DNA of 64,000 nt from NCBI GenBank assembly GCA_012646185.1, contig GCA_012646185.1_4706.1, one strand, 5' to 3'. Within the stretch, counting starts at the first letter, position 1. Each line of letters begins with the position of its first letter. Under the pieces are notes generated by a model that saw nothing but the letters and a program-made list of their open reading frames with translations, was not told the origin of the DNA and made no database searches. Source of the DNA: a phage. This document shows, one piece after another, positions 1 to 48,933 of the stretch. The position numbers were made by a program, and so were the translations under genes.

Positions 1-3000
1 CCAGAACCAATTATAACAGAATAACTAGCAGCTGTTACCGTTATAACCGAAATTACTGTTCCGCCAGCTCCTCCCCCAGCGCCAAAAAACGTTTCGCTGT
101 TGGAATAAGCCTGACAGCCACCGCCGCCACCGCCGCCACCGGTTATCGTTACTCTAATCCGTTTTGTTCCTTGTGTTGGGGTGTACGTCCCTGACGATGT
201 GAAAACACGCATATTCAGTAAACGCCCGACATATCCGCTAGAATCGGCTAAACCAAGATCTTTAGCTGCTAACGTGATATTAGCTGTACCATCAAACGGT
301 TTACCGTTAATCGTGCGCGCGGTCTGCAACTTCGTCGCCGTTGCTGCGTTTCCTGATGTGTTCTGGTTTCCCGCGGCGTTAACACCTGGCAGATTGATGT
401 TCGCACTACCATCAAAAGAAACCCCACCAATGGTGCGGGCTGTTTGCAGTTTTGTCGCTGTGGCGGCATTCCCCGTGGTATTTTGGTTTCCTGCGGTGTT
501 AACACCCGGCAGACTGATATTAGCCGTACCATCGAACGCAACACCGCCGATCGTCCTTGCTGTTTGCAGTTTTGTCGCCGTGGCGGCATTACCGGTTGTG
601 CCTTGGTTACCGGTGGTGTTTACCCCAGGTAGGTTGATATTTGCCGTACCGTCAAATGAAACGCCGCCTATCGTTCTTGCCGTTTGCAACTTCGTTGCGG
701 ATGCCGCATTCCCTGTGGTGTTTTGGTTACCTGTTGTATTCACACCTGGGATACTATCCTTAGATGTGTAGATCTGTGCCCATTCCGACCATTTCGCATC
801 GGTTGTATCGCGACGTGAACGTAAATAAGCCGGAGCGTGTGCGCCAGAGGTACCTGACCAACCAACGAGGATTTCACCTTCACCTACCGATGAAGCACCT
901 TTGAGGTGAATAACGTTACCATAGGCGGTTGGGTAGCCGTTACTGTACGCTTCATACATCTGGATACCGGTATTACTACCTTGGGTCGCATTAGCTAACG
1001 CGGTAACACGACCTTTGGAGGCGAGAGCGGTAATACTGAAGCTAATGTCCTTAGTACCGTCAAAGGCGACCCCATTAATCTTCCGTGCTGTTTGGAGTTT
1101 CGTGGCGGTAGCCGCATTACCAGAGGTACTCTGATTACCTGCTTTGTTCACGCCAGGCAAATCAATGTTGGCTGTTCCATCAAAGGACACGCCTCCTATG
1201 GTTCTCGCTGTCTGAAGTTTTGTTGCTGAGCCAGCGTTTCCGGAAGTACCTTGATTACCTGCCGCGTTGACACCTGGTAGGTTAATGCTAGCAGAGCCAT
1301 CAAAAGAAACTCCGCCGATCGTGATCGGTGTTTTCAATTTCGTGGCTGTCGCGGCGTTACCCGTCGTGTTCTGGTTGCCTGTCGCATTAACGCCAGGTAA
1401 TGCGACATCCGCTGTTCCGTCAAAGGCAACGCCACCGATTCTACGTGCAGTTTGTAGTTTGGTTGCACTAGCAGCGTTACCGCTGGTATTCTGGGTGCCA
1501 GCTTTGTTAACACCGGGGAGATCGATGTTAGCAGAACCATCGAAGCTGACGCCACCTATCGTTCTTGCGGTAGCGAGTTTAGCTGCTGTGGCTGCATTAT
1601 TACCCACTTTCAGCCAATCATCCCATGGACCATCCTGGCCGTTCCATGATGCCGTTAAACTACGTACGTAAATATTGCCGGTACGTACAGTGTAACGTTG
1701 CGTTCCACCGAATTGTCCAGCAGGGAGCACTTCAAGGTAACCTGCGGCATTTGCTTCAGGGAAATTGTGGGCGACGTCCGCGTTCGTTGATACTGGTTTA
1801 GACCAAATACCCACAGACGCTTCAACCGGACCGTAGGTATTCAGATTTGCGTCGGTGGGGAGCTGTCCTCGAAAACGCTGGAATAGTGTTGCCGATAACC
1901 GCAACAATGCTTGCATGCTTTCAATGCTAGATTGCTGCAGTAACGTCCGTGCTGTCGGTGTGATCGTCGCTAAATCAACCTTATTCGTATCGGTAAAATA
2001 CGGGAATTTGTTTGCTGATGTTGCTAAACCTGAAAAGGCGGTCAGTAATGCGTTAAGGGGCTGCTTCCCAGCTAACGCATTTGTTACCGTCGTTGCGAAA
2101 TTAGGATCACTTCCTATAGCTCGAGCCAGTTTATTAAGTGTATTTAGCGTCGCTGGAGACGAGTCGATCAACGCCGTGATCGCACGCATCACGAATTCCG
2201 TGTTGGCAATCTGTCGACTGCTGTCGTTCACTACAGCCGTAGGCGCTGCTGGGATACCGGTGAACACAGGGCTATTAAGATCTGCCTTGAGCGCGATGAG
2301 ACGTTTAAGTGCGTCGACATCGACTTTCAGGTTTTCCCATCCGATGAGAGAACCACCGCTGCTGGCATGGTAACGGTTGTACCAGAAGTCACCGTTAACG
2401 CCTAAAAAGAATATTCCCTTCTCTTCGTTTTGCGGGCCGGAACTATTTCGTGACGAGCTGATGTAATTGATTTCAATAAGACCAGTAAACGTCACTCCTG
2501 GGATTATTTTGTTGTCTCCAGCTGACTGTGATACCTGGTAAATCCCCGGGGTTGCGGCTTTAACCCATGTTAAGAATTCTGTTACTCCAGCGGTACCGCT
2601 AAAATTCTTAACGTCGGTAAGTATTGCCCCATAACCGAACATACCGGGTAGAGCCACTCGTCCGCCGGTACGGTCACGAATATCTGTCGCAACAACAGGC
2701 AATTGTTTACGAACGGCATTAACCGCCTTAGGTGTGGCCGATTTTGTCTCGTCGTCGCTATCGGTTTCATTACTTAGAATAGTTAAACCGCGTGTAGCAG
2801 TAGTTGCATCAGGAAGAAATGCGTTATCCAACACCTTAAGCTGTACTGCACTCGTATTACTAACAACGACATGCACCTGACAGTTAAGAACGCTGGTTGC
2901 ACCTTCGGCAGGCGTAGGCTTATATCTTTCTGGCGCACTGCAGACGGCAATCAGAACATCTTGGTCATCGTACAGACCGATCTCACGTACCCAGAACCCA

Positions 3001-3254
3001 CCTTGACCAGCAGGAATAATACCCTCAACGATAATCCTGGTTGTGCTGTCACCATCCGCATGGATATTAGAAACTTCCCCACGATAAACTTCGTGAACAA
3101 GCGCTGTTTGGCTGGCGTTCGGGGTTGGGATCGAGCCGTTACCATCACCAACGGCAAAGTGTGTGATTTTTAGTTTCTCACCGTCGGGAAGTAACGCAGC
3201 GGTGATACGTTCTGCTCCTTTATCGGTAACTACCGTTATATATGCTGTACTCAT
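1..3254 (-). CDS. long tail fiber protein, partial (C-terminus runs off the window start): N-terminal domain, lambda Stf-like conserved region, two blocks of fiber repeats
   Basis: Manual minus-strand translation from ATG at 3254: MSTAYITVVTDKGAERITAALLPDGEKLKITHFAVGDGNGSIPTP. Region 2100-2340 reads DLNSPVFTGIPAAPTAVVNDSSRQIANTEFVMRAITALIDSSPATLNTLNKLARAIGSDPNFAT, closely resembling lambda Stf (DSPALTGTPTAPTA...QIANTAFV...DALNTLNELAAALGNDPDFAT). Repeats read GNAATATKLQTARTINGKPFDGTAN. Frame checked at several points but not end to end. Confidence 0.8.
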   Translation of the reverse strand, partial: MSTAYITVVTDKGAERITAALLPDGEKLKITHFAVGDGNGSIPTPNASQTALVHEVYRGEVSNIHADGDSTTRIIVEGIIPAGQGGFWVREIGLYDDQDVLIAVCSAPERYKPTPAEGATSVLNCQVHVVVSNTSAVQLKVLDNAFLPDATTATRGLTILSNETDSDDETKSATPKAVNAVRKQLPVVATDIRDRTGGRVALPGMFGYGAILTDVKNFSGTAGVTEFLTWVKAATPGIYQVSQSAGDNKIIPGVTFTGLIEINYISSSRNSSGPQNEEKGIFFLGVNGDFWYNRYHASSGGSLIGWENLKVDVDALKRLIALKADLNSPVFTGIPAAPTAVVNDSSRQIANTEFVMRAITALIDSSPATLNTLNKLARAIGSDPNFATTVTNALAGKQPLNALLTAFSGLATSANKFPYFTDTNKVDLATITPTARTLLQQSSIESMQALLRLSATLFQRFRGQLPTDANLNTYGPVEASVGIWSKPVSTNADVAHNFPEANAAGYLEVLPAGQFGGTQRYTVRTGNIYVRSLTASWNGQDGPWDDWLKVGNNAATAAKLATARTIGGVSFDGSANIDLPGVNKAGTQNTSGNAASATKLQTARRIGGVAFDGTADVALPGVNATGNQNTTGNAATATKLKTPITIGGVSFDGSASINLPGVNAAGNQGTSGNAGSATKLQTARTIGGVSFDGTANIDLPGVNKAGNQSTSGNAATATKLQTARKINGVAFDGTKDISFSITALASKGRVTALANATQGSNTGIQMYEAYSNGYPTAYGNVIHLKGASSVGEGEILVGWSGTSGAHAPAYLRSRRDTTDAKWSEWAQIYTSKDSIPGVNTTGNQNTTGNAASATKLQTARTIGGVSFDGTANINLPGVNTTGNQGTTGNAATATKLQTARTIGGVAFDGTANISLPGVNTAGNQNTTGNAATATKLQTARTIGGVSFDGSANINLPGVNAAGNQNTSGNAATATKLQTARTINGKPFDGTANITLAAKDLGLADSSGYVGRLLNMRVFTSSGTYTPTQGTKRIRVTITGGGGGGGGCQAYSNSETFFGAGGGAGGTVISVITVTAASYSVIIGS
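270..770 (-). repeat. tandem ~123-nt (41-aa) tail fiber repeats, distal block (Phage_fiber_2-like: ATKLQTARTIxGVxFDGxANIxLPGVN)
   Basis: Period visible on both strands; the antisense frame stays open, giving the artefactual plus ORF 181..771. Confidence 0.8.
1020..1615 (-). repeat. tandem ~123-nt tail fiber repeats, proximal block
   Basis: Same repeat unit as 270-770, separated from it by a ~250-nt non-repeat insert (780-1000). Confidence 0.8.
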
Positions 3255-3260
3255 GGTGTT

Positions 3261-3788
3261 TTATCCTGGATAAATAGTGATGATATCACCAATGACGGTT
3301 GTGGCACCGGCGTAAAGATGAGCCGGAGATACGTCGTGTTGGTTTGTCACAGTAAGATCCAATCGACCACGCCAAACCATGGAGGTATTCGCGATGGGGA
3401 TAGAAATCTTTTTGGATATATCGTCACGAAAATCAATAACAGTGGCGAGGGTAACCGCATCAAAATCAACGTCGGGGTCAAAGACGAACCCGTATTGATC
3501 TGAAATAGCCCGAATAATCGCATGTATAGTTGTTGTCTCAACGGACTCTAAAACGATTTTTACCGGTATTCCTAAAAATGCCTTCGCGATATCGCGTCGA
3601 GCGTAAACGATAAAACTTTCACCACACCACTTTGTTCCTTCATTTGCTGTGACGATCACTTTTGCCCTGTTAGCACCAGAACTCCCATCCAAGGTTAATG
3701 TAAGATCGGAGTTGCTGAACACGCTACCGTTACGTTGGTTTATCAACGTAATCAGTTCGTCTTTCCATGGCGGGTAAAGTGAACGCAT
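3261..3788 (-). CDS. hypothetical protein (175 aa); N-terminal module shared with products of 7605-8435 and 44535-45986
   Basis: ORF with GGAGGAGGG Shine-Dalgarno before ATG at 3788; shares WKDEL...YxRRDIAKxFxGIP...YGxVFD pattern with two other proteins; sits immediately upstream of the tail fiber. Confidence 0.65.
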   Translation of the reverse strand: MRSLYPPWKDELITLINQRNGSVFSNSDLTLTLDGSSGANRAKVIVTANEGTKWCGESFIVYARRDIAKAFLGIPVKIVLESVETTTIHAIIRAISDQYGFVFDPDVDFDAVTLATVIDFRDDISKKISIPIANTSMVWRGRLDLTVTNQHDVSPAHLYAGATTVIGDIITIYPG

Positions 3789-3994
3789 AAGCGCAACCCT
3801 CCTCCAATAATCAAATTAAAATGTAAAACGCCTCGAAACCGGAGTGCGATTCGAGGTAAGCGTAAACAGTCCAGACGACCACATAAAATTCCGCGCATAT
3901 TGCCCCTCTACCCCGACAAAGCGAGATAGAGGGAGGATAACACTTTGTGCTCTGTGGCACTTCAAAGTTCGTGGGGCGGTAACCGCCCCATCGG

Positions 3995-6900
3995 TTAAAT
4001 TGTTGGTTTTACATCGCGTAATAGGGCAATATAATAGCCTAATCCTCGGAGGATCTCTCCACTCCAGAAACCAAAATACATTCCGTCTCTGCCGAGATTA
4101 GCGCTATCTGGTGCAGGACTCCACCCACCATTCATTACGTCATCAACGGTGTAATGGTTGATGTAGTTCTCAACGATTTCGTTATACGCATTAACAGCAA
4201 CAGAATAACCTTTATCGTTGGGATGTCCGTACAACATTGCTAACGACGCACCCGCCAACCATAATCCTGCCATATGACCAGTAAAATCATTAGGGATAAA
4301 AGCGGGAGGTTTATCCATCGGAAAATCCGTAGGAGATTGATAAGCGTTTTCCTGTTGATACGTAAACAAGAAATCAATCCAATGGCTGATGTAAGTGGTT
4401 AACTTCTCAGGGACGGCTAAACCACGATCGAGCAGTCCAGCATAAAGCCGCACCGCTGAAAAGAAAGCCCTCGGCTGATAACCAGACCATGCCGTCTGAT
4501 CGCCGAAGTGGTACATTGTAAAATCATTAACTTTTGATCCGCTTGGCGCATCCCAACGATCCCACACGTACGCACTTGCCCCCGGCCCTAAAACCCCGAA
4601 TTTCTGATAATACCACTGCTGCGAGTCATACCAGAAATTCACAACATTCTGAATCATGAGGTCACGTCGTTCAGTCGATACGTCCATATCCAGGAAGACC
4701 CATGGATGTTGGTAGCCGGGATAAGGCTGACCACGCCAACTGTCGAACGTCGGTGCGTTAGGGATATAGTTGTTAGAGAACGGAATAATACCCGGAGTAT
4801 AAGGCAACGGATCGAGACGTTGGTTGACAATCGTACAATCGCCAACACGTAATGTTCCCTCCGCCTCAAAGGTTGCTTTTAACGTAAACAGCATGGTATA
4901 TCCGTCATCCGTGGTGTAAGTTGACGGTGGATTGTTGATGGCGTAAAGCTTAAATACCCCTTCAGCGATATCGCTGTCGTCAGGCAAGAACAGAATTTCA
5001 GTTGATCCATCCCCCCACACAGGTGCAGAAGGTTTAGGGTCAGTATCAGCGTGGCCCGGTTGATACCCTGAGAGCCTCCATCCGTTCGCCGAAAGCGTCA
5101 ATGTATTTCTTGCTGTGGTGGCCGGTAGCATATACCACCATCGCCAACCATTTGCATCTTCTACACGAACGTTGTAGTCAATCGACGCGAAATAACTGAC
5201 CTGTCTTACGATCTGTTTTGCGGTTGGATTGAATTCAAATTGCCCGCCTGCCGCAGTAAGCTGCGCTTTTAAGAACAACCCATCCCAGGAATCTTCCGCT
5301 GCTTCGCTGAATTCGGTTGTGATGGCGACATCATCTTTCCAGCCGACTTTATCAGCCGATATCAACACAGAACCTGTAACAGCATCACCGGTTGGTGTTG
5401 AAGCTTCATCAACCGCATCAGCAGGAATCAACGAGCCTATTTTGAAATCCCATCCTTTCGGTTCAGCGCTGGAAGGTAATACCAGCTTGTACGTTTTGGC
5501 GTTCGCTTCGGTTTTGTCCAAAGAAAGCGATAATGAGATCTCAACCGGAATTGCAACACCCGCTGCATCTTTACCGCCGCAGGTTACACGAAGAATTGAA
5601 TCACGATTGACGCGGAACGGAATAGCCTGCTGTTCAAGGTAAATTTGTGCTGAAGATGCTTGAATCACAATCCAACCATCGGTATCACGCGTGATTGTGA
5701 ACGGTGCTTTCGATGGGTATGTATACGTGTAAGCGATACCGTCGGTGTCGTAACGATCGGTTCCTTTTACTTGACGGAAGAACTTATCGTTGGCGTCGAT
5801 ACGGGTATATTCTTCAATCGTAAACAAAGATGCCTTGTACGCTTTCTGATAACGCTCCTGCTGCGTTAAACGATATAAGGTGTAGGCTGCTTCACAAAAC
5901 CACTGTTCAGCGTCTGACGCGTTTCCCATGTAGTCTCTGGTGACCGGTACCTGGATCGGTCGGTTATGCTGACACTCGTTCGTTTTGATAAGGTATCCGC
6001 CATATTCAACAGGAACGCGGGGTGCCCACGCAACCAAATAAGAACCGTTGACGGATTTATCTTTGAGTACGATGGTACCTACTTCATCGTCAGTACACGC
6101 TTCAAGATCGTCCCCGTCAGCACTTACGTAACGTTTTGTGCGTAACGCAACTTTCTCGATAGGGAACACCGTACCCTTTGTATCCCAGTCAATCGTCCCA
6201 TCATCATTGGTTTTGAACACATCGGCGTTCAAATTCTGCCAGCCGAGTTTACCTTCATAGACCTGAACAACAAGATCCATGTATTCCCCGAACGTTGGTG
6301 TACCGTGTGTTATTTTCCCGATACCGTTGGTGAATGTAACCGCTGTGTCATGGAAACCCCCGTGTGTTGGGTAATCGTCTTTTGCAAGAGGATAATGGGC
6401 CAACACCGGTTGCTTACCATTAACGATCCAGTTAGCGATCCAGCGTGTCGGTGTATCCGGTGGTTCAAGGCCTGCGTAGAACGCTTTTATATACGCATCG
6501 AACGATGCCTCTGCTAATGTGAGATAATGCGCTTTAAGCTTGGTATCATCCGTTGTATGGCTGAATATACCCGCACCCAGAATTAACAACGACTGTCCTT
6601 CTGTTGTTGCGTCACCATCCGGTTGTGCTTCCTGTCGTGTTGCTGCAATGAAATGACGGTTGTTTACCATGACCCCGCTTTCATTTAACACGTAATGATC
6701 GGTTTCTGGGTCGGTAAACGTTCCTGTGTTTCGGGTTAAGAATCTTGCATGACCATAACCAACGAAATTAACCGGCGACGCTGTAATCATCCATTTACCG
6801 ATAAGTTGAGCAACATCATTATAACGCTCGGATGCGGTGATTTGTTTCACGTACCAGTCTTTATGGTTAAATGTCCAAAGCAGGAAGTAATAAGTTGTAT

Positions 6901-7591
6901 CGATTTCCATCACTGGGAACGTCGGCGTTAACGGCTCCAGCGTTAAGTAGTTGCTCCAGTCAATCTGTCCGCCAACCACCGATGGGGTAATCTCTAATAA
7001 CTGACACCACTCATAACGGTCCGGTACACTACTGGACGTTGTTGGTAAAGGTAACTTGTATACGCCAGTACGATTCAGATCGAACGCTTTTCTAGCCGAT
7101 CCTAAATCAACATAAATACTCGATGATGCGTTTGCACTATATGCCTCCAAAGCACCTAGCGTTGACCGATACATTGAGATGAACAACGTATCTTTCCAGT
7201 AAGGGTTATCCTTGGTTGGTTCTAAAGCGATTTGTGCAAAAATGCTGTTCTGCGCCCCTAACTGGTATGTTGCATTTAAAGATTCTTCTGTGAAATAACT
7301 TTCTGCAATCGTCAGATGGAACTGCTCGTTCAATAATGCGAGTGCGGCGCGTCCAGTAACATCCTCATTACCGGTTTCTTTTTTCATGATCGCGCCGAAC
7401 GGAAACAATGTCGCGAATGACCGTTTTGGTTTATTAACCGTAACCGTCCCCGTGTATTTTCCAACACCATCAAGTTTTTGACTATCGCCAACAGCAGTGA
7501 CTGCGATACCATCAGCCGGGATATTTGTTTTATTTAGTACATTGAGTTGGTCAACCAGATCCTGCTTATCGTCAGGTAAGAATGTCGCCAT
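3995..7591 (-). CDS. large hypothetical protein (1198 aa), probably virion or tail associated
   Basis: Very long uninterrupted ORF co-oriented with tail fiber genes; no motif recognised by eye. Confidence 0.7.
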   Translation of the reverse strand: MATFLPDDKQDLVDQLNVLNKTNIPADGIAVTAVGDSQKLDGVGKYTGTVTVNKPKRSFATLFPFGAIMKKETGNEDVTGRAALALLNEQFHLTIAESYFTEESLNATYQLGAQNSIFAQIALEPTKDNPYWKDTLFISMYRSTLGALEAYSANASSSIYVDLGSARKAFDLNRTGVYKLPLPTTSSSVPDRYEWCQLLEITPSVVGGQIDWSNYLTLEPLTPTFPVMEIDTTYYFLLWTFNHKDWYVKQITASERYNDVAQLIGKWMITASPVNFVGYGHARFLTRNTGTFTDPETDHYVLNESGVMVNNRHFIAATRQEAQPDGDATTEGQSLLILGAGIFSHTTDDTKLKAHYLTLAEASFDAYIKAFYAGLEPPDTPTRWIANWIVNGKQPVLAHYPLAKDDYPTHGGFHDTAVTFTNGIGKITHGTPTFGEYMDLVVQVYEGKLGWQNLNADVFKTNDDGTIDWDTKGTVFPIEKVALRTKRYVSADGDDLEACTDDEVGTIVLKDKSVNGSYLVAWAPRVPVEYGGYLIKTNECQHNRPIQVPVTRDYMGNASDAEQWFCEAAYTLYRLTQQERYQKAYKASLFTIEEYTRIDANDKFFRQVKGTDRYDTDGIAYTYTYPSKAPFTITRDTDGWIVIQASSAQIYLEQQAIPFRVNRDSILRVTCGGKDAAGVAIPVEISLSLSLDKTEANAKTYKLVLPSSAEPKGWDFKIGSLIPADAVDEASTPTGDAVTGSVLISADKVGWKDDVAITTEFSEAAEDSWDGLFLKAQLTAAGGQFEFNPTAKQIVRQVSYFASIDYNVRVEDANGWRWWYMLPATTARNTLTLSANGWRLSGYQPGHADTDPKPSAPVWGDGSTEILFLPDDSDIAEGVFKLYAINNPPSTYTTDDGYTMLFTLKATFEAEGTLRVGDCTIVNQRLDPLPYTPGIIPFSNNYIPNAPTFDSWRGQPYPGYQHPWVFLDMDVSTERRDLMIQNVVNFWYDSQQWYYQKFGVLGPGASAYVWDRWDAPSGSKVNDFTMYHFGDQTAWSGYQPRAFFSAVRLYAGLLDRGLAVPEKLTTYISHWIDFLFTYQQENAYQSPTDFPMDKPPAFIPNDFTGHMAGLWLAGASLAMLYGHPNDKGYSVAVNAYNEIVENYINHYTVDDVMNGGWSPAPDSANLGRDGMYFGFWSGEILRGLGYYIALLRDVKPTI

Positions 7592-7604
7592 TATTTACTC
7601 CACC

Positions 7605-8435
7605 TTAATCGTAACTAAAATAAAGTTTGCTGCTGACGCCGCTATCGGAATGAGGTTTTAATACCAGAACAGAGCTTCCGAACGACGGAAGTATTGGAAC
7701 ATCTAAATCGTTCGCATCGGCAACTTTTCCATTATAAACGACATTGGCTGTTGTGATGAGTTCCCAAGCTAAGGTATAACTCATTGAAATCAGCGACGAG
7801 GCTAAACGGAATGCATTGTATCCTTCTGGAGTATCTCCAACCGACATCGAACGTATCGCATCTTGCGGCGGTAAATTTAGCTTGATGCCGTAGGTGCTGA
7901 ATGTGTGGAAATCCCCTTGTTTACTATCTTCTGGATAATACGAGGTTAGCGGTTCTCGTACCGTAAACAGTTCGCTAATATCGGTACTTACATCTTTTCG
8001 TGCGAGGAATTGAAACGTACCGTGCCATGATGCCGATGCGTCAGAACGAACGGGAACAGATATGGTTTTCTCGCCGCTTTCAAATTTAACCTGTGACGCT
8101 AACGCTGAAGAATCAAAGATCGTTAAATCGATCTTCAACCCATACTTCTTAAACAGCTGCGTTAAGCAGTCTGCTATCGTCGTCTTATCAGCAACGACAA
8201 TAAAAGGTTGGTGTTTGATAAAGAGCTTATTAATGTCTCGACGTTGAAGATAAACCTGTACGGGGTCTTCGACGTAGTAAACCGATTGTGGTGCGGGGGC
8301 TATAGAAAGGCGTAACCGACCCGATGCACCATACCAGGCTGGCGTTAACGTAACGTCTGACAGGGACAACGGATGCTGGAGATAGGCGTTTATTTTAGAT
8401 AACACTTCCTCCTGCCATGATGCTTCAGGATACAT
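7605..8435 (-). CDS. hypothetical protein (276 aa); third member of the shared N-terminal module family
   Basis: N-terminus ASWQEEVLSKIN...YLQRRDINKLF...YGLKIDLTIFD parallels 3261-3788 and 44535-45986; GAGGT before ATG at 8435. Confidence 0.6.
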   Translation of the reverse strand: MYPEASWQEEVLSKINAYLQHPLSLSDVTLTPAWYGASGRLRLSIAPAPQSVYYVEDPVQVYLQRRDINKLFIKHQPFIVVADKTTIADCLTQLFKKYGLKIDLTIFDSSALASQVKFESGEKTISVPVRSDASASWHGTFQFLARKDVSTDISELFTVREPLTSYYPEDSKQGDFHTFSTYGIKLNLPPQDAIRSMSVGDTPEGYNAFRLASSLISMSYTLAWELITTANVVYNGKVADANDLDVPILPSFGSSVLVLKPHSDSGVSSKLYFSYD

Positions 8436-8493
8436 GCTGACCTCATAGATGATCGTTGATAGGAAAGAAACCTAATTCATACCATGGGAACCT

Positions 8494-8555
8494 CAAAAAA
8501 AAAAAAATAGGAAAATAGGAAAAACGGTGTTCACCCCTAAAAAGGATGAACACCG
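8494..8555 (-). terminator. intrinsic terminator for minus-strand transcript: 9-bp stem hairpin (8525-8555) followed by a T14 run (A14 on plus, 8494-8507)
   Basis: Inverted repeat cggtgttca/tgaacaccg with 13-nt loop, directly after stop of 8576-9154 gene. Confidence 0.6.
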
Positions 8556-8575
8556 CGTACCGTTATATCGAACGA

Positions 8576-9154
8576 TTAGTAAGGAATCAGATCGTTAAGC
8601 TTTTCTTCTTCAATGACAAAGAAGTTGTTCTGGTCGTCTAAATCTGTTAACATGACTTGTCCGACAGTAAAGCACGTACCGCCCTTCTTAGGCATCCATA
8701 CCGGCTCATTCGTTACCTTATCGGGATACCATTTGAAACGATTGGTATCCAAGAAGAACGCTGCTTTGTTCGCTTTATCGGTTGAACGATAGCTAACCAA
8801 TGCAGGCCACTCAATCCAGGTGTTTGTGCATGGTACATGTAAAGGATACCAGGCACGCCAGCGTTTGCCTGGGTTGCTAGGATCAACCCAATACTCGGCA
8901 GTCAATACAGCATCTTTATAGTGTTTCTGCATTAACATTTCGAGCACAAGCTCATTACCTTTTGATGCATCTAAAGTCACTTCAGCCATATAAAGAGATT
9001 TAGGTAATTCAGACTGTTTTGCGGTTGGTGTTACAACGCCGGTAACCAACGGTCTGCTCGGTTTACGTTTCTGTTCTTTCCGACGTGTGTAAAAGAATAG
9101 TCCGACAGATACGGCAACAAGTATAATAAACAACACTACCTTAATCCAATTCAT
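8576..9154 (-). CDS. membrane-anchored hypothetical protein (192 aa, single N-terminal TM helix)
   Basis: N-terminus MNWIKVVLFIILVAVSVGLFFY followed by a basic stretch; 4-nt overlap with upstream gene. Confidence 0.6.
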   Translation of the reverse strand: MNWIKVVLFIILVAVSVGLFFYTRRKEQKRKPSRPLVTGVVTPTAKQSELPKSLYMAEVTLDASKGNELVLEMLMQKHYKDAVLTAEYWVDPSNPGKRWRAWYPLHVPCTNTWIEWPALVSYRSTDKANKAAFFLDTNRFKWYPDKVTNEPVWMPKKGGTCFTVGQVMLTDLDDQNNFFVIEEEKLNDLIPY

Positions 9155-9891
9155 TCGTCAATATCTCCTTCTACAAACAGAGTCAATTTGATTTCAGGGT
9201 CATAGAACATAGTAATCACACCATCTTGCTCTACTGAACGTTGTGCTGTCCATATTAACTGTTCATCCCGAATATCAAATTTATGCCGCTCATCACTCAC
9301 CACGGCTTCCGCATCGACATAGTGATAAATGCCACCTTCAGGATTCTCAATCCAACCACGTACCATCAGACGGTCTTTCTGCTTACGTGTGAAGAATCGA
9401 TACGGATCTTCGCAGGTTCGCCAAACGTCACCGCTCTCGCTTACCAGTTCGTCATACACCTTCGAAAGCTCGTCAGGTACTGGAATCAAAATGTTATCCT
9501 GATAGCCTGACCAGAAACGACGTACGTCTTGTAATAAATCGTCGCTTTGTAGTTTAACCACATGCGTGTGATTCGCAAAATCAGTTTTTGATTCGCTGAA
9601 CCAAAACGCTTTTTCGTTCCCTACAACGACATCGATTCGATCATGTTGAACACAAACCCACCCATAAATCCATCCGTAACCATCAACGTTATATAACGTT
9701 GTTTGGTAACTGACAATATCGATGTCGTCAAACGATGCTAATAAAGCTTTAGCCGCTAGAAGCGGGGAGAAGTTTTTCGATTGCGATGCTTTACGGATGT
9801 CTTCTTTGATGAGTAATTTACCGTGAATTGGATGTTCAATAACAAAACCACAGGAGAGCATGATGCTTCCTTGATAACGTGCTTCTTGCAT
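9151..9891 (-). CDS. hypothetical protein (246 aa)
   Basis: Long ORF, co-oriented, overlaps downstream gene start by 4 nt. Confidence 0.55.
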   Translation of the reverse strand: MQEARYQGSIMLSCGFVIEHPIHGKLLIKEDIRKASQSKNFSPLLAAKALLASFDDIDIVSYQTTLYNVDGYGWIYGWVCVQHDRIDVVVGNEKAFWFSESKTDFANHTHVVKLQSDDLLQDVRRFWSGYQDNILIPVPDELSKVYDELVSESGDVWRTCEDPYRFFTRKQKDRLMVRGWIENPEGGIYHYVDAEAVVSDERHKFDIRDEQLIWTAQRSVEQDGVITMFYDPEIKLTLFVEGDIDE

Positions 9892-18707: not shown

Positions 18708-19210
18708 GCTAAAATTCCTTCATTACCTAACAGTCGGTTACGATGACGTCGGTACATTTGACAAAGTGTTGTGATTTGATAATGTTTGTTGTAACGCACC
18801 TCGATACGTTTTTGCACCTCTTTCCATGGAAGTTTATCGTATTGCCGATAACGATGGATTTCATTTAACATACGAAGACGAGTAGGATCGGTGTTCTTTA
18901 TCGTCGTGAGCTTCACGCGTTGGTATCCACGCTGTAGTCCCGATTCGGAATACGTGACGTCAAACTCATCCTGAATGATGGTAATGATCTCCCGCCACCG
19001 ACGGTTCTCGCCATCACGTAAATGGACAACCCGCGATAAGATATCGTTCCGATTACGATGACTCAGTTTAATGTTAAGCATTGAAGCAATCGCGCTAATT
19101 GCTCTCTGACTCCGTCCTAACGCTTCACCTATTTCTTTCGATGTCATGACGCCCGCGTTTCGGCGTATGAATGCGATTTCGGTTGTTGTGTATTCTTTAC
19201 CTGCTGCCAT
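18704..19210 (-). CDS. HTH DNA-binding protein, tandem paralog 6 of 6
   Basis: Two HTH-like segments (TTTEIAFIRRNAG...SKEIGEALGRSQRAISAIASML) and the family C-terminal W...Y pattern. Confidence 0.6.
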   Translation of the reverse strand: MAAGKEYTTTEIAFIRRNAGVMTSKEIGEALGRSQRAISAIASMLNIKLSHRNRNDILSRVVHLRDGENRRWREIITIIQDEFDVTYSESGLQRGYQRVKLTTIKNTDPTRLRMLNEIHRYRQYDKLPWKEVQKRIEVRYNKHYQITTLCQMYRRHRNRLLGNEGILA

Positions 19211-19674
19211 TTCTTACCACGTGTGTTATAATAGTAACGCTGACAAAGATGTGTGTGACGATACTCCCGTTTGAACTCGACGCTGATAATGCGAGCAACT
19301 TCTCTCCAGTTAACTCCTTCATGCCGAAGTGCTGTAATACGGTCTGAAATTTTGCACCATTCATCTGGATCGTATCGTCGTAGCTTGAGTCGTCGTATTA
19401 CAGAGGCGACACTCGCTCTCGATCGGCCAAGATGATTTGACAGTTGTTTAACCGAGTATCTGTGGATATTGTCACGAATATAGGAAATCTCGTTGTCCGT
19501 ATATGCCTCATTGGTTCTCGACGAAGGGAACAGCATATACAACTTATTCTTAATCGCGCTTTCTGTGCGTTGAAATACAGAAGCCAGCTCACTAACCGGT
19601 GGTCTGGGTATCTGGTCCGCGTAATTCTCGAGGCGTGAGAGTTCCTCATCTGTCCAGCGACGGTATTTGCGCAT
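19144..19674 (-). CDS. HTH DNA-binding protein, tandem paralog 5 of 6
   Basis: Start moved to MRKYRRWTDEELSRL; second HTH SVKQLSNHLGRSRASVASVIRRLKL; C-terminal VNWREVARIISVEF. Confidence 0.6.
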   Translation of the reverse strand: MRKYRRWTDEELSRLENYADQIPRPPVSELASVFQRTESAIKNKLYMLFPSSRTNEAYTDNEISYIRDNIHRYSVKQLSNHLGRSRASVASVIRRLKLRRYDPDEWCKISDRITALRHEGVNWREVARIISVEFKREYRHTHLCQRYYYNTRGKKWQQVKNTQQPKSHSYAETRAS

Positions 19675-20149
19675 AGGCAGCTCCTTTGTTTTTCGTGTAG
19701 TAGCACCAACGTTGATACAACGCGTGTTTATTCGTTGTAATCCCAAATTTAACAACAACGTCGTAGGTAATAACATCCCAATTTTGGGTGACGTTAAGTC
19801 GTTCCGCGATAAACGCGATAATCGCTTCCCGTTCTTGCTTTGTTAACGCACGACGAATTCCATTAAGCCGTATAAACTGACGAACCGAGTCATACGAACG
19901 GTTTAAATCAAACGCAATCTCCCGCAGCGATCTTTGTTTGATTACCGACTTGATGTACGCACGTTCTTCTTCCGTATACGGCCGATGCTTTTGACGTTGA
20001 CGTATTCCCAAGCGACCCAGACACGCGTCGATGCTGGCGCGTGTTCGTCCTGTCCGTTGTGCGATTTCATCAATCGTCATCGATGTGTTTAAGTACAGAT
20101 GCGTGACGTCTTTCAGCTCGTCGTCACGCCACGGTTGAGATCGTCTCAT
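19646..20149 (-). CDS. HTH DNA-binding protein, tandem paralog 4 of 6
   Basis: WRDDELKD...MTIDEIAQRTGRTRASIDACLGRLGI and a second HTH SLREIAFDLNRSYDSVRQFIRLNGI. Confidence 0.6.
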   Translation of the reverse strand: MRRSQPWRDDELKDVTHLYLNTSMTIDEIAQRTGRTRASIDACLGRLGIRQRQKHRPYTEEERAYIKSVIKQRSLREIAFDLNRSYDSVRQFIRLNGIRRALTKQEREAIIAFIAERLNVTQNWDVITYDVVVKFGITTNKHALYQRWCYYTKNKGAAYAQIPSLDR

Positions 20150-40398: not shown

Positions 40399-40956
40399 TT
40401 ACTCCATCCATACTTCTTCGTCGTAATGATTTTCTATCGCATTACGCCAAAAACGTACGGTGTCCAAACTAATCGGTGCGTAAAAGTGTTGGTCAACGCC
40501 GACGTTAAGTCCGTTGGCCTTCGCTAACATACAGCGATGAATATGACCGAATAAATTAAAGTAGCCTGGGTTTCTTTCGCTGGGCTTATGGCATAGCCAG
40601 TAGGATTCGTCATTGCTAATCGGCAATACCAGCGGGTGCTCATAAACAGCAGCAAACCCCATACCGAGCAGTTTATCACGCCACGCTTCGAAGCTTAATC
40701 CTGTCGCTTTGTATGCGTCTTCGTCCCAATTCCCCATTACCAATTGAACCTGGATATCAGAACGAATGGCTTCCACGAACTCGAACTTACCCCAATCACC
40801 TAAATGCCATAACACACTGTTCTTTGGAAGGTTGTTGATGGCTTTCAGCATATGCTGGTTCATATCGGCGACGCTTGCGAACGGACGGCGTGAATACGTC
40901 CATGTACGCTCGCTATCAAAATGGGTATCCGACATAAAGAAGATGGGTGGGGTCAT
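40399..40956 (-). CDS. calcineurin-like metallophosphatase (Ser/Thr phosphatase or ApaH-like)
   Basis: Motifs in order: FMSDTHFD (DxH), HLGDWGKF (GD), VMGNWDED (GNHD/E-like), FGHIHR (GH). Confidence 0.7.
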   Translation of the reverse strand: MTPPIFFMSDTHFDSERTWTYSRRPFASVADMNQHMLKAINNLPKNSVLWHLGDWGKFEFVEAIRSDIQVQLVMGNWDEDAYKATGLSFEAWRDKLLGMGFAAVYEHPLVLPISNDESYWLCHKPSERNPGYFNLFGHIHRCMLAKANGLNVGVDQHFYAPISLDTVRFWRNAIENHYDEEVWME

Positions 40957-41435
40957 TGATTTAATTGCTCCAGAAATGCGCGACCCGATTTACTTGCTTT
41001 TAAATGCTGTTCTGCGGAAGTAAGCAGAAGATCGGTTGGCGTATATGCAGCGCTACCTTTCCACGCTGTTTTCAGTTTACCCTTTTCGATACTGAACTGA
41101 ATCAGTTGTTGGGTACCGAAGTTAAGCGTGTTCGTCGCGGCGCTAAATACACCGCCCATCATGCTGTAACCAAAGACTTTCACGTTTTCCGTGTAGAAGT
41201 CGTTATCGATCAATTTGTTCTGGAGCTCGAGTTGGTCGGACGGCAGCAATCCCCCATCAAAGACGCTTAAAATACCAGCCAGGCGATACATGCTCACCTT
41301 TCCTGAAACGCCCACCACGTAGTTGCCGTACAGGGTTTCTTCCAGTTTAGCAACAACGGTGCGATCGTCGGAGGTTTTCATCGAAACCTCAATACCATCA
41401 CCAACTTCTGTTAACGTTAAATCAACGATACTCAT
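40953..41435 (-). CDS. hypothetical protein (160 aa)
   Basis: ORF, 4-nt overlap with phosphatase gene. Confidence 0.5.
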   Translation of the reverse strand: MSIVDLTLTEVGDGIEVSMKTSDDRTVVAKLEETLYGNYVVGVSGKVSMYRLAGILSVFDGGLLPSDQLELQNKLIDNDFYTENVKVFGYSMMGGVFSAATNTLNFGTQQLIQFSIEKGKLKTAWKGSAAYTPTDLLLTSAEQHLKASKSGRAFLEQLNQ

Positions 41436-44534: not shown

Positions 44535-45986
44535 ATGAAACTTAAACAAAGCTGGAAAGACGAACTTCTCGCGTTAGTAAATAGCAAAAACAGCTTACAG
44601 CTGACATTAGCCGACGTAAAATTTGAACTAACTGAACCGGTAAGCGAAGTGCCCGGAACGGTTGTCGTTACGATCAAACCGAACGATGATAGCCGTTACT
44701 TTAACGAGCAGTCTCTGACCTACATCCGTCGAGACATCGCTAAAAACTTCACCGGGATCCCGTTACGGGTTATCGTTAAAAATGATACCGCCGTAAGGGA
44801 TATCATCAATACGATTGCTGAACGTTACGGATTGGTATTTGACACAACCATCGACTTCCTCGAATCCGAGCTGAATAAGCAGATTACGTTCGAAGACACC
44901 GGTATTAAAGACATTACGGTTCCGGTTGCAAACACGTCTTATGTTTGGGCTGGTAATCTTCAGTTCAATATCGCTAACGATACGTTGAGCTTGATTACGA
45001 TCATCAAGCAAACCAATCTTACGAATCTGGTTTATCTGGATGGTGTTGAATCTAACACATCGGGTTCGTTACTATTAGCAACGACCTCGGTTATCGGCGA
45101 AAACGGAAATGCCGAAACAACTGAAGGTGTCCTTGACGCCGCGTACTTCCAGAATATCCTGAACGTCATGGTTCGTTATGGTGATATTACCAGCGAACAA
45201 ATGCAACAAGCAATGCAGACAATTAACGGAAGCGAAGACGCTCGTAGAGTAGAGGTGCGGTCATACGGTGACGCCGAATTACTGGTAACCACCAAGAAAG
45301 ATTGGGTTATCGGTAGCCTTAAGGGTGCTATGGTTGTTGGTCACGCTTCACCTAAACCAATCCAATACGTTCTTAAAACAAAAGGCGGCACCATTATATT
45401 GTCATTAGATGGTTGGACAAATGTCAATATCGATTGGGGTGATGGGAATAAGACGACGCAGGACTCAGGCGATAATGAATATCAGCACAATTATGCGGAC
45501 ACTACAGAACGTACGATCGTCGCTACGGGTACCCCTACCAACGTTGGAGATACAGACGTACAGCAAAGCTTCACCGGTGGTAACATCACTGAAATCGTTG
45601 ACTGGAACAACGGATTACCTAAGGCCCCATCATTACTTGCAGCGAACAGTTTAACTAAGGTTCCCGATTATATCCCGGCATACTGGACATCGTTAGAAGG
45701 TATGTTTACGCGATGCAGCGCTATTAACGACGTGAACATCACCAAATGGAACACCCGCAACGTTACTTCAATGAAGGACCTCTTCTACGGTTGCGCTACG
45801 TTCAACCAACCGATCGGTTCGTGGGATGTTTCGTCTGTTAAGAATGCAGACAATATGTTGTCTGGGTGCTTCGCGTTCAATCAGGATCTGAGTGGTTGGA
45901 CATTCCCGGCAGGCACTTCACACATCAACTACGACGCCATGACCGCCGCATGGCAGGCTGGTTATAAACCACACTTCACCGAGTAA
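44535..45986 (+). CDS. two-domain protein: shared N-terminal module plus C-terminal DUF285/BspA-like repeats; candidate fiber or adhesin
   Basis: N-terminus parallels 3261-3788 and 7605-8435; C-terminus has repeats MFTRCSAINDVNITKWNTRNVTSMKDLFYGCATFNQPIGSWDVSSVKNADNMLSGCFAFNQDLSGW. Confidence 0.65.
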   Translation: MKLKQSWKDELLALVNSKNSLQLTLADVKFELTEPVSEVPGTVVVTIKPNDDSRYFNEQSLTYIRRDIAKNFTGIPLRVIVKNDTAVRDIINTIAERYGLVFDTTIDFLESELNKQITFEDTGIKDITVPVANTSYVWAGNLQFNIANDTLSLITIIKQTNLTNLVYLDGVESNTSGSLLLATTSVIGENGNAETTEGVLDAAYFQNILNVMVRYGDITSEQMQQAMQTINGSEDARRVEVRSYGDAELLVTTKKDWVIGSLKGAMVVGHASPKPIQYVLKTKGGTIILSLDGWTNVNIDWGDGNKTTQDSGDNEYQHNYADTTERTIVATGTPTNVGDTDVQQSFTGGNITEIVDWNNGLPKAPSLLAANSLTKVPDYIPAYWTSLEGMFTRCSAINDVNITKWNTRNVTSMKDLFYGCATFNQPIGSWDVSSVKNADNMLSGCFAFNQDLSGWTFPAGTSHINYDAMTAAWQAGYKPHFTE

Positions 45987-46044
45987 AAAAAAAAAAAAAT
46001 AGATAGCATATCTTCCTCCCTACCCATAACGGGCGGGGAGGAAG
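45985..46044. terminator. bidirectional terminator at convergent junction: A15 run (45985-45999) plus extended GC hairpin (46012-46044)
   Basis: cttcctccc/gggaggaag arms with inner ccc/ggg stem; T15 in minus sense follows the hairpin after stop of 46062-46400. Confidence 0.55.
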
Positions 46045-46061: not shown

Positions 46062-46400
46062 TTAGAACCAGAGTTCTTTCATGAAGTAGGCTTCCATATC
46101 GTAGATAAGCCACTCGTCAGGGATTTCTAAAGGATCGTCTTCGGTTAAGGTCAGCATGTGCAGGGCGAACGCACGCTTAATATCGTTCAGCAGTTTCTCG
46201 TCGTCGTAACCTTCGGGTAGTTTACGGTCTACCAGCTGGGTTTGTTTATAGACGTCGCGGAATGCTTCAGGGCTGTGTTTGTCCATCGGAAATTGTTCAG
46301 CAGCCTGAACCATAGAAAGCGTCCAGCTTACAACATTGTAACGCTCACCATTAATTTCACTGAACTGATCATCGATTAAACAGATTTGTTGTACGTTCAT
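46062..46400 (-). CDS. hypothetical protein (112 aa)
   Basis: ORF, last gene of the long minus-strand block. Confidence 0.5.
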   Translation of the reverse strand: MNVQQICLIDDQFSEINGERYNVVSWTLSMVQAAEQFPMDKHSPEAFRDVYKQTQLVDRKLPEGYDDEKLLNDIKRAFALHMLTLTEDDPLEIPDEWLIYDMEAYFMKELWF

Positions 46401-47290
46401 TCATTTTCTCCATTCTTATCTTGGTCGCAATCACACTCTTCGACGTCTTTCTTACTTAAACGTAAGACACCGAGTGCGGCATGCTTGAGTTCTTGCAACG
46501 CGCTTTTCAGCTGACCTTCTTCATCGAAATCAAAATACTTCTCGTTGTAGCTTAATGCTGGAATCATATTTACGAGAGGTTCGATGGCGGGCATCAGCAT
46601 TTCAATGACGACCTTAGGATCAACAAAGCGTTCAAACCCTTCAGGAAGTTTGCTCGCTACAACCTTATCGTTTTTGATGTAGAATTTGTTCTTGAACAGA
46701 TCGTCAAGAATAGCGTTCTCTTCATCCGTACGTTTTGCGTGAGGACGATCGATCATCTGTACAAACACACCATTCAACGCTTCAGGCAACGTCGGATTTT
46801 CACGAAGATAAGTTCCAGCCGGAATTTCAATATCGATCTTCGTCCACTCAACAACCTGGTGGTCTCGTGTGTAGATGACGTCAACTTCCCACGCCAGGCC
46901 ATCAGCGCTTTCTACGGTGTAACGTGTTTTCGCCTGGCCTTCAGGAGCCATGCGTTCGATCGCGTCAAACATCTCGACTGGAATTTCGACTTCGCTTTCC
47001 GTTGCATCACCTGGACCACGATACACCTTCGTGGTCATGATGTATTTCGGCTCTTCGTTATCGATCTGGATCGCACGTGCGCGCACCTGACCTTTCACAC
47101 CACCAACGGCTGTGTTATCAAACAACCATTGATGTTGCACCATATGTTCGATTTTTGATGCGACTTGACGAAGACGTTCAACACCGTCTTCAGCCAGTTT
47201 ACCAAAGAAGACCAGCTCACGTTCCTGCTGTGTCTCACCACTTAACATCATTAAATTGGCGATTTGTTTCACGCCTCTTACTTGTGACAT
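46397..47290 (-). CDS. hypothetical protein (297 aa)
   Basis: ORF, 4-nt overlap. Confidence 0.55.
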   Translation of the reverse strand: MSQVRGVKQIANLMMLSGETQQERELVFFGKLAEDGVERLRQVASKIEHMVQHQWLFDNTAVGGVKGQVRARAIQIDNEEPKYIMTTKVYRGPGDATESEVEIPVEMFDAIERMAPEGQAKTRYTVESADGLAWEVDVIYTRDHQVVEWTKIDIEIPAGTYLRENPTLPEALNGVFVQMIDRPHAKRTDEENAILDDLFKNKFYIKNDKVVASKLPEGFERFVDPKVVIEMLMPAIEPLVNMIPALSYNEKYFDFDEEGQLKSALQELKHAALGVLRLSKKDVEECDCDQDKNGENE

Positions 47291-47358: not shown

Positions 47359-48933
47359 TTACAATTCAAAATCTTCATCGATAACACGCTGGGTAAGCAC
47401 TTTGTCGCTGAAGAACTCCACCTTGCGCTGATGGTATTTACGGTGCGCTTCGATAGAAGTACATACCAGATACCAGAACGTTGGCGTCATTCCTTCAAAC
47501 TTCCCTTTCAGCTGACGCAGTCGCCCCAACACCTGAATGTTGCCGGTTCGTGACCCCATCGCTAACGTCATGAACGTCATCACCAAGTCAGGGAGGTCGA
47601 TACCTGTACCTGCCGATTTCACCGTCGTAACGCTAATATCGTTATCCAGCAAGACCATGAAATCTTCTTCAGCAGTATAAGGACCGATCTCTAGCTCAGG
47701 AATACGCTCACTGAGATAGTGCGACAACGACTTACACATATCAACGGTTGCACAATACACCAGCATCTTCATGCCTTCCTGATACTGGTTCATGAAACCT
47801 TTGATGATAACGGTATAGATGAAGTTAAAATACGCGAGTTTGAGTTGCTTGTTCTTCATGATAGACTGTTCGAATATCGTGTGTGAATAAGCTCCGCCAA
47901 ACCCTTTGTATCTGACTTTATCTGTACTGCGTAGTCGATATGTTACCGCATTTACCGCAATATATTTCTTGTATTCGCCTTTTGCATAACGGGCTTCTTT
48001 CGGATACATCAAATACAACATCTGTTCGATAAACGGATCATCGGACACCGCCGTTGCCGACAGATAAATGATTTCCGGAATACTGGCGTAACACTTGACC
48101 TTAAACAAGAAATGCAATGCTTCGTGACACTCGTCATGAATCAGCAAACCTATGCCGGTCTTTTCCCAAAACTCAGCGGGATGAAAGGCATATGGCGCAA
48201 CGCAGTTATTCTTCTCGTAGTCCGCAATATAACGTTGGAACATGTTCAAGGAGAACAATGCGATTTTGAAGTCGAGCTCACCTTGTTCAACCAAGGTTTG
48301 AAACTCCAGCATGCTGTAACGAGGAATGTCGGGATGTGGTGGATCCTCCTTAGCGTTCCCGCGTATCTCAATAACGTCCCCTGGTTCCATCCCGAAGAAG
48401 TTCAGCAGTGAGCTTCGCCAACCTGGCATGTATCTCGGCGACAGAATGATACCCGTCCGTACACCACGTCGGAAGGTAATCTCCTGCGACATGGCCGTTT
48501 TTCCTGACCCCGTTTGAGCGGTGTTTAGGCTCATTCTGAAGGGGGTATCCTTACCCCCGTCCATGTACTCCAACCATTCTTGCTGATCTTGACGCCATGG
48601 AAACTTCCATTTCTTTACGAACTCCACTTCTTTACCTGGTACCGGATCGTGATAGACGATTTCCAACCACTCTTTTCGTATCCCTCGGGAAAAGATAAAA
48701 TCCAAAAACGATTTCAACTGTTCACGGAGTAAGTATACCTCGCTATAATCGCTTCTCGCCGCGGCATACGTGTTTATGGTATCGGTAACCATTCTCCGTG
48801 TACGAGGGTCACGCCGTTTCCTCAGATGCAAACAACGGTCTCGAAGGTAATGGCCTATCAAATGGGCAAATCGAAGTCCGTATCCGCTCAGCCTCATGCC
48901 ATGCGAGAAGACGTCGATACGAGCTAACTTCAT
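47359..48933 (-). CDS. superfamily 2 helicase (DExH box)
   Basis: Walker A TAQTGSGKTAMS, motif II LLIHDECHE, SAT motif YLSATAV, motif VI QVLGRLRQ. Confidence 0.65.
   Translation of the reverse strand: MKLARIDVFSHGMRLSGYGLRFAHLIGHYLRDRCLHLRKRRDPRTRRMVTDTINTYAAARSDYSEVYLLREQLKSFLDFIFSRGIRKEWLEIVYHDPVPGKEVEFVKKWKFPWRQDQQEWLEYMDGGKDTPFRMSLNTAQTGSGKTAMSQEITFRRGVRTGIILSPRYMPGWRSSLLNFFGMEPGDVIEIRGNAKEDPPHPDIPRYSMLEFQTLVEQGELDFKIALFSLNMFQRYIADYEKNNCVAPYAFHPAEFWEKTGIGLLIHDECHEALHFLFKVKCYASIPEIIYLSATAVSDDPFIEQMLYLMYPKEARYAKGEYKKYIAVNAVTYRLRSTDKVRYKGFGGAYSHTIFEQSIMKNKQLKLAYFNFIYTVIIKGFMNQYQEGMKMLVYCATVDMCKSLSHYLSERIPELEIGPYTAEEDFMVLLDNDISVTTVKSAGTGIDLPDLVMTFMTLAMGSRTGNIQVLGRLRQLKGKFEGMTPTFWYLVCTSIEAHRKYHQRKVEFFSDKVLTQRVIDEDFEL

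Follow-up and report, generated by a model that had tools for sequence, protein, structure and literature searches.

A shared N-terminal DUF7941 module on four proteins of a Goslar-like jumbo phage, including the long tail fiber protein

The window analyzed here, a stretch of phage DNA of 64,000 nucleotides, contains four genes whose products carry related N-terminal modules; three of these genes are neighbors close to its left edge. Region 3000–9200 of the window presented 97.1% nucleotide identity to Escherichia phage vB_EcoM_Goslar, a jumbo phage of 237 kb, and the gene order (gp91, gp92, gp93, gp161) is the same in the window as in Goslar, with amino acid identities to the Goslar orthologs of 99.4% (gp91), 97.6% (gp92), 98.9% (gp93), and 95.9% (gp161). 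At the nucleotide level, the window can be described as a ~97% variant of Goslar, without an essential difference in these DUF7941 genes, and the Goslar gene names are used below for the orthologs. The following features are discussed:

1..3254, minus strand: N-terminal ~1084 codons of a gp90-type (P1 S-like) tail fiber gene, identified as a stop-free frame with the Goslar gp90 N-terminus at codon 3
3261..3788, minus strand: gp91 ortholog (175 aa), an open reading frame (ORF) matching Pfam DUF7941
3995..7591, minus strand: gp92 ortholog, "long tail fiber" (1198 aa), identified with a held-out family HMM, hhalign, and PHROG 2871
7605..8435, minus strand: gp93 ortholog (276 aa), matching Pfam DUF7941 and PHROG 1037
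8524..8556, minus strand: hairpin resembling a terminator (stem of 15 bp), immediately upstream of gp93, a consensus match only
44535..45986, plus strand: gp161 ortholog (483 aa), matching Pfam DUF7941 and DUF285 as well as TIGR02167, and represented by an AF2 model

The gp90-type gene begins 6 nt downstream of gp91 and continues past the left window edge; the gp90 N-terminus does not contain a DUF7941 module, as the family HMM gave only noise there. The genes are arranged as two tight pairs, with a gap of 6 nt from gp91 to gp90 and of 13 nt from gp93 to gp92, and with 206 nt between the pairs. The gp93-gp92-gp91-gp90 block probably begins at the hairpin at 8524–8556; a scan for sigma-70 promoters returned matches at background level only. 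According to the Goslar annotation, gp90 is followed by a gene encoding the tail fiber assembly protein gp89.

An earlier note on this DNA had proposed, from the sequence, that the products of 3261–3788, 7605–8435, and 44535–45986 share an N-terminal domain. The ORFs are exact, and all three pairs were significant in pairwise BLASTP, with 36% identity over 148 aa between gp91 and gp161 (E = 3e-29), 33% identity over 163 aa between gp93 and gp161 (E = 8e-18), and 29% identity over 147 aa between gp91 and gp93 (E = 9e-12); a lack of significant pairwise similarity, which that note had named as the outcome speaking against a shared domain, is thus not what the alignments gave. The motifs quoted in support of the domain (W-K/Q-D/E-E-L/V, Y-x-(x)-RRDI-x-K-x-F, and YG-x-x-F/I-D) were found among the invariant columns. 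The length originally given for the domain, ~110 aa, was too short; the module consists of a folded domain of ~150 aa and a linker motif of ~30 aa. All three proteins passed the Pfam model DUF7941 (PF25613; profile length of 276 positions, gathering cut-off of 27 bits), with scores of 58.2 (gp91), 36.0 (gp93), and 88.4 bits (gp161), and PHROG 1037 and PHROG 2935 annotate the module as "virion structural protein".

The two short members differ in how much of the family profile they contain. In gp91, the DUF7941 module (aa ~4–150; nt 3339–3788) is followed by a 25-aa tail that ends in the linker-like sequence "IGDIITIYPG", without a distal domain, and the protein covers only the first ~150 positions of the DUF7941 profile. 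In gp93, the module (aa ~5–156; nt 7968–8435) is followed by a linker and the family C-terminal region; aa 56–275 correspond to positions 63–274 of the 276 positions of the DUF7941 profile, and PHROG 1037 matches aa 9–275. The three proteins had been described as having C-termini of different kinds, which holds for gp91 (short) and gp161 (DUF285) but not for gp93, where the supposedly distinct "medium" part is the remainder of the full-length DUF7941 profile. Because neither gp91 nor gp93 has a distal binding domain, the suggestion that they are alternative adhesins was abandoned; they consist of the module and a linker (plus the family C-terminal domain in gp93) only, and may represent chain or adaptor subunits without a binding domain. 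Searches of Pfam, PHROG, and NCBIfam yielded no match of gp91 or gp93 to a chaperone-like family.

An HMM of the three modules identified 132 representatives among 1.84 billion proteins, and a family HMM of 158 positions was built from these representatives and the Goslar paralogs. In 137 of the 141 family proteins, the module starts at residue 25 or earlier. With distant members as queries, tblastn matched 75 and 119 phage records, and the genomes among the matches listed were all 197–322 kb in size, with 2–8 copies per genome; DUF7941 is presumably a jumbo-phage (chimallivirus) family. A tblastn search with gp91 retrieved Goslar only, and a word-indexed protein search retrieved near-identical relatives only, even with a profile query. 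Beyond gp91, gp92, gp93, and gp161, no ORF of the window scored against the family HMM; the ORF at 19144–19776 had shown a weak match to the three-sequence HMM (E = 0.012), which disappeared with the broader family HMM and was dismissed as chance.

The long tail fiber gene at 3995–7591 is indeed flanked by two of the genes, as had been pointed out previously, and its product, gp92, also bears a copy of the module. This diverged copy (aa 10–141; nt 7169–7564) is followed by a linker region that extends to about aa 278 and then by a tail-protein body of ~920 aa (PHROG 2871). The score of gp92 against Pfam DUF7941 was below the threshold (13.4 bits, E = 0.055, aa 45–142), and hhalign of the three-sequence profile against gp92 found nothing (probability 0.1). 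A family HMM trained without gp92 matched it with E-values of 5e-8 to 1e-7 at HMM positions 6–142 of 158, and hhalign of a 30-sequence profile against gp92 gave E = 4.2e-4 over 133 columns; a first score with a broad HMM (E = 1e-13) was discounted as circular, since gp92 was in the training pool. We thus classify gp92 as a fourth, diverged DUF7941 member by sequence profile, and since gp92 carries the module, gp93, gp92, and gp91 constitute three consecutive DUF7941 genes.

The body of gp92 has a different distribution from its N-terminus. PHROG 2871 (tail protein) matched aa 279–1190 over its full length (E = 5.8e-297), and tblastn found 42–49% identity over aa 279–1196 to tail proteins in ~530 phage records, among them PCH45 and members of unrelated groups (PBECO4/121Q-type jumbo phages, rV5-like myoviruses, and the podovirus Cronobacter Ss1); no Pfam, NCBIfam, or PDB sequence match was found for the body (window 3995–6757). 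Similarity begins abruptly at residue 279/280 in nearly all of the matches listed, and at residue 227 in PCH45. As read from these alignments, gp92 is a graft of the module onto a tail-protein body that phages widely exchange, and the DUF7941-bearing N-terminus is lineage-specific. Compared to Goslar, 16 of the 29 amino acid changes in gp92 fall in codons 1–171 (window 7079–7591; Fisher p = 3e-5), and synonymous differences are evenly spread along the gene; by this comparison, the module copy of gp92 is fast-evolving at the protein level.

When a profile of 30 diverse modules was compared with PDB, a single match was obtained, 9xqd_0 ("PHIKZ127"; E = 5.3e-14); single-sequence PDB searches with gp161, gp93, and gp92 found nothing. 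The evidence on the fold comes from the gp161 module, which was modelled alone and inside the full-length protein. The AF2 model of gp161 aa 1–164 had a pLDDT of 89.4 and a pTM of 0.79, and a Foldseek search of PDB with the gp161 module gave 9xqd_0 as the sole significant match (E = 1.7e-6, probability 1.00), with TM scores of 0.56/0.61 over 149 aligned columns; in BFVD, 76 matches were found at E ≤ 1e-3, and the named ones all belong to PhiKZ-like jumbo phages. The module is, according to these models, a ~150-aa alpha/beta fold, that of the N-terminal domain of PhiKZ gp127. Although PhiKZ gp127 presents only ~21% identity to the module, its N-terminal module is homologous and has the same fold, and a linker starts from about residue 150 in both. 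A motif at the start of this linker (phi-x-L-x-x-phi-I-x-x-x-x-L-x-G) is conserved across 121 members directly after the module; the motif region of gp161 shows 55% identity over 31 aa to that of the filament-forming Goslar protein gp22, and gp91, gp93, and gp92 show a weaker form of the motif.

In the baseplate of PhiKZ, each star lobe has one gp127, which lies at the end of the band formed by dimers of gp139; this part, the outer peripheral baseplate, is called the fiber-attachment platform by the authors of that study (PMC13250141). The Goslar homolog of PhiKZ gp139 is gp32. PhiKZ gp127 (290 aa) lacks an adhesin domain and occurs once in each star lobe, whereas gp161 and gp92 bear large C-terminal domains; gp161 is also ~20 times more abundant than PhiKZ gp127.

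The gp161 protein is the longest of the three initially recognized members, and its full-length AF2 model (mean pLDDT of 87.1) divides it into a module (aa 1–150; nt 44535–44984), a low-confidence linker that contains the conserved motif (aa 151–176; nt 44985–45062) and has a pLDDT below 50 at residues 156–173, a middle domain (aa 177–270; nt 45063–45344), a beta-sandwich that includes "IDWGDG" (aa 277–345; nt 45363–45569), and DUF285/BspA-type repeats (aa 350–483; nt 45582–45983). Residues 385–456 passed the Pfam model DUF285 (PF03382) with 78.2 bits (cut-off of 25; E = 5.4e-22), and the PARCEL repeat model TIGR02167 was passed with 33.7 bits (cut-off of 30). The middle domain (aa ~200–270) showed no sequence similarity to the C-terminal domain of gp22 or gp93. 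A run of 13–15 A directly after the gp161 stop codon (45984–46000) differs in length among relatives. P0003, a fragment of 183 aa encoded on a 1.1-kb contig, is 98% identical to the N-terminus of gp161. Its database entry calls it a hypothetical protein from Salmonella enterica serovar Enteritidis, from which it follows that the sampled Salmonella material contained a Goslar-like phage.

We compared the gp161 locus of the window (44535–45986) with those of L002 (6001–7452), L003, L004, and L005 (5543–6816), and L011 (2501–3955), and found that gp161 is broken at two predicted domain boundaries in wild relatives. Three independent assemblies (L003, L004, and L005) have in common a 2-nt insertion at codon ~152, which results in a 153-aa module ORF and a 271-aa linker-DUF285 ORF with a TTGA stop/start overlap; this break falls exactly between the module and the linker motif, and the same assemblies also have in common a 180-nt in-frame deletion of the beta-sandwich. 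In L002 and P0001, codon 277 is changed from CAA to TAA, with the downstream frame open, and both lesions are found together in P0004. At the frameshift, neither a canonical −1 slippery heptamer nor an RF2-like +1 site could be identified, and no Shine-Dalgarno sequence precedes the TTG starts in the split alleles. The idea that a suppressor tRNA rescues the split alleles has no support, as no tRNA genes were found in the window or in loci L002–L005. Since the middle domain of gp161 shows no sequence similarity to the C-terminal domain of gp22, the product of the ochre allele is also not presented here as a complete protein of the gp22 type. The fused form of gp161 is probably ancestral, since the window, Goslar, and a 237.5-kb IMG/VR contig all have it, and this contig carries the C-terminal variant of the split alleles.

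The simplest reading of these alleles is that the adhesin part of gp161 may be dispensable and repeatedly lost, because several wild relatives have a truncated or split gp161. A more tentative reading, to which we give rather little weight, is that the module and the linker could be a separable socket and plug that act in trans, since evolution repeatedly fuses these parts (in proteins with 2–5 tandem modules) and splits them (in gp161). If so, cargo such as a DUF285 adhesin could be recruited to baseplate filaments non-covalently through the linker alone, and genes that split or fuse at module boundaries would determine the composition of a host-recognition "cloud".

A further difference between the window and these relatives was observed in a helicase gene (Goslar gp164; 47359–48933, minus strand) that encodes 524 aa in the window. 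Its counterparts encode 876 aa in L002 (8822–11452), L004 (8187–10817), and L005 (8188–10818), with a weak LAGLIDADG_3 match, and 753 aa in L003 (8184–10445); this difference points to an insertion in the longer alleles, an intein or a homing endonuclease, that the window lacks.

Across the family, the module precedes a wide range of C-terminal partners, including DUF285 (12 of 87 representatives), a ConA-like lectin, cadherin, Ig-like repeats, the Gp38 adhesin, and GH-related domains. Unexpected C-terminal Pfam matches were observed in single members, namely to the T-even tail fiber adhesin Gp38 (E = 4.6e-20) and to heat-stable enterotoxin ST (E = 1.5e-8), and one family member presented a C-terminal match to a non-contractile tail sheath TIM barrel (E = 3.3e-84). 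Thirteen representatives (P0048, P0059, P0060, P0062, P0075, P0079, P0094, P0100, P0101, P0109, P0112, P0127, and P0134) contain 2–5 tandem modules per ORF with a spacing of ~170–180 aa, an arrangement that fits modules aligned in chains. The best matches of these tandem modules in sequenced Erwinia and Salmonella jumbo phages are adjacent separate genes.

Two known systems resemble this architecture in part. Modular tailspikes and fibers (e.g., the head-binding domain of the P22 tailspike and the branched sets of the CBA120/G7C type) combine a virion-specific N-terminal anchor with an exchangeable C-terminal receptor-binding or enzymatic part. Similarly, the gp92 body is common to unrelated phages and its N-terminus is lineage-specific, and several proteins per phage carry the anchor. 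However, the fold of the DUF7941 module is unrelated to theirs (there was no other PDB match), head-to-tail polymerization has been proposed for it, and many DUF7941 members do not have a receptor-binding part. The second system is that of the BspA/DUF285 (PARCEL) surface proteins of bacteria and large phages, which the C-terminus of gp161 resembles in passing both models; domains of this type are scattered over many jumbo phages. In the DUF7941 family, by contrast, the repeats are mounted on the module and are lost, shortened, or separated in close relatives.

The presence of a shared module on these proteins is already known; a preprint by Basu et al. (bioRxiv 10.64898/2026.04.21.720040, 22 April 2026) describes ten DUF7941 proteins in Goslar (gp22, gp23, gp31, gp33, gp34, gp86, gp91, gp92, gp93, and gp161), three of which (gp86, gp92, and gp161) additionally contain domains of the carbohydrate-binding, glycoside hydrolase, or LRR type. 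The set is thus not limited to three proteins, nor is it the small set that the earlier note had proposed, with these ten members in Goslar and four in the window, including the "long tail fiber". According to the same preprint, purified Goslar gp22 formed filaments in vitro, as seen by negative-stain EM; AF3 predicted head-to-tail dimers, the N-terminal domain of one protomer serving as the docking site for the linker and C-terminal domain of the preceding one; a PhiKZ gp126-gp127 heterodimer was fitted into baseplate density; and a baseplate-anchored "fiber cloud" was proposed for host recognition (10.64898/2026.04.21.720040). Because the finding has been published for Goslar itself, the value of the present analysis of the shared module is that of independent confirmation. 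The held-out test of gp92, the split and truncated gp161 alleles, the tandem-module relatives, and the gp92 graft point at ~279 possibly go beyond what the consulted sections of the preprint contain.

Copy numbers for the Goslar orthologs are given in Table S4 of the preprint as medians per virion (10.64898/2026.04.21.720040). The gp161 protein was present at ~111 copies (27 peptides); gp92, gp93, and gp86 at ~4.9, ~4.8, and ~4.5 copies, respectively; gp91 at ~1.2 copies with 2 peptides, which is the level of likely contaminants; and gp90, gp33, gp22, and gp23 at ~43, ~112, ~577, and ~2144 copies, respectively. An absence of all three initially recognized proteins from virions, the other outcome that would have spoken against the proposal, is therefore not observed, as the Goslar orthologs of gp91, gp93, and gp161 were all detected in purified virions. 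The products of neighbors of gp161 on the minus strand (46062–46400, 46397–47290, and 40953–41435) were also abundant in the mass spectrometry of Goslar virions, in which gp162 was found at ~127 copies (close to the ~111 of gp161), gp163 at ~45, and gp158 at ~926 (10.64898/2026.04.21.720040). The preparation used for mass spectrometry also held chimallin and PhuZ, showing that co-purification happens, and no DUF7941 density was seen in the Goslar baseplate maps.

Taken together, we consider it likely that gp91, gp93, and gp161, together with the diverged gp92, are DUF7941 proteins that form chains anchored at the baseplate through the module, with distal host-binding domains in the long members. 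The module would hold these proteins on the virion, and would be followed by a flexible linker that opens with the conserved hydrophobic motif; the linker (with the C-terminal domain, where present) of one protomer would dock on the module of the next, so that chains would grow outward from six baseplate sites, and the long members would show host-binding or carbohydrate-active domains distally, i.e., the DUF285/BspA repeats of gp161 and the ~920-aa body of gp92. The module is interpreted as a virion-association element because of its homology to a baseplate component, its near-universal N-terminal position, and its adhesin-type partners. The original idea of a common virion-attachment module agrees with the detection of the orthologs in Goslar virions, with the homology to PhiKZ gp127 in sequence and fold, and with the location of the module ahead of adhesin and carbohydrate-active domains; as for the more specific idea of one attachment module with alternative distal domains, virion association stands, but simple one-to-one attachment does not agree with the published model of head-to-tail filaments. 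The step from "attached" to "polymerized" is taken because of the gp22 filaments, and also because of copy numbers above the number of baseplate sites, the tandem modules, and the linker motif; polymerization itself was shown for one protein, Goslar gp22, in vitro. The baseplate location is extrapolated from one PhiKZ protein, because the Goslar baseplate maps showed no DUF7941 density. The contaminant-like level of gp91, the chimallin and PhuZ in the virion preparation, the sub-threshold Pfam score of gp92, and the broken gp161 alleles also count against this interpretation. From these data we infer that the proteins of the window sit on the baseplate, polymerize, and bind the host.

Other readings of the same data were weighed. 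Each module could dock alone at a fixed baseplate site, as a simple one-to-one adaptor without polymerization, just as each star lobe of PhiKZ contains exactly one gp127; gp92, gp93, and gp86 are each present at ~5 copies, close to six, and the adjacent gp93 and gp92 (13 nt apart) have matching copy numbers, like the PhiKZ gp126/gp127 pair. As an account of the whole family this is unlikely, since gp161 (~111), gp33 (~112), gp22 (~577), and gp23 (~2144) are present far above six or twelve sites, gp22 forms filaments in vitro, and proteins with tandem modules exist; for gp92, gp93, and gp86, however, a role as one-per-star-lobe adaptors is a live alternative.

The gene arrangement points to a further possibility, namely that the short members are assembly or attachment factors for the next fiber gene (gp91 for gp90 and gp93 for gp92) rather than filament subunits. 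The tight pairs (gaps of 6 and 13 nt, with 206 nt between them), the low level of gp91 (~1.2 copies) relative to gp90 (~43), and the lack of a DUF7941 module of its own in gp90 would agree with such a role, but virions contain as much gp93 as gp92, gp90 is already followed by a protein dedicated to tail fiber assembly (gp89), and the searches of gp91 and gp93 returned no chaperone-like family, which together make this role improbable, though conceivable for gp91 with respect to the adjacent gp90. It appears very improbable that the proteins are located inside the virion or merely co-purify, with C-termini that function post-injection or play no part in adsorption. While the maps without DUF7941 density, the nucleus-shell and PhuZ contaminants in the preparation, and copy numbers in the thousands that resemble those of inner-body proteins would be expected under this reading, the PhiKZ gp127 module is built into baseplate density, the domains fused to the module are typical of extracellular adhesins, lectins, and tail-protein bodies, and genes for tail fibers and the baseplate surround those of the DUF7941 proteins.

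Little is understood about how nucleus-forming jumbo phages recognize their hosts, and the DUF7941 proteins, as likely baseplate-anchored chains with distal host-binding domains, are a plausible main player in this process. Their role matters for the prediction of host range and for the engineering of therapeutic jumbo phages.
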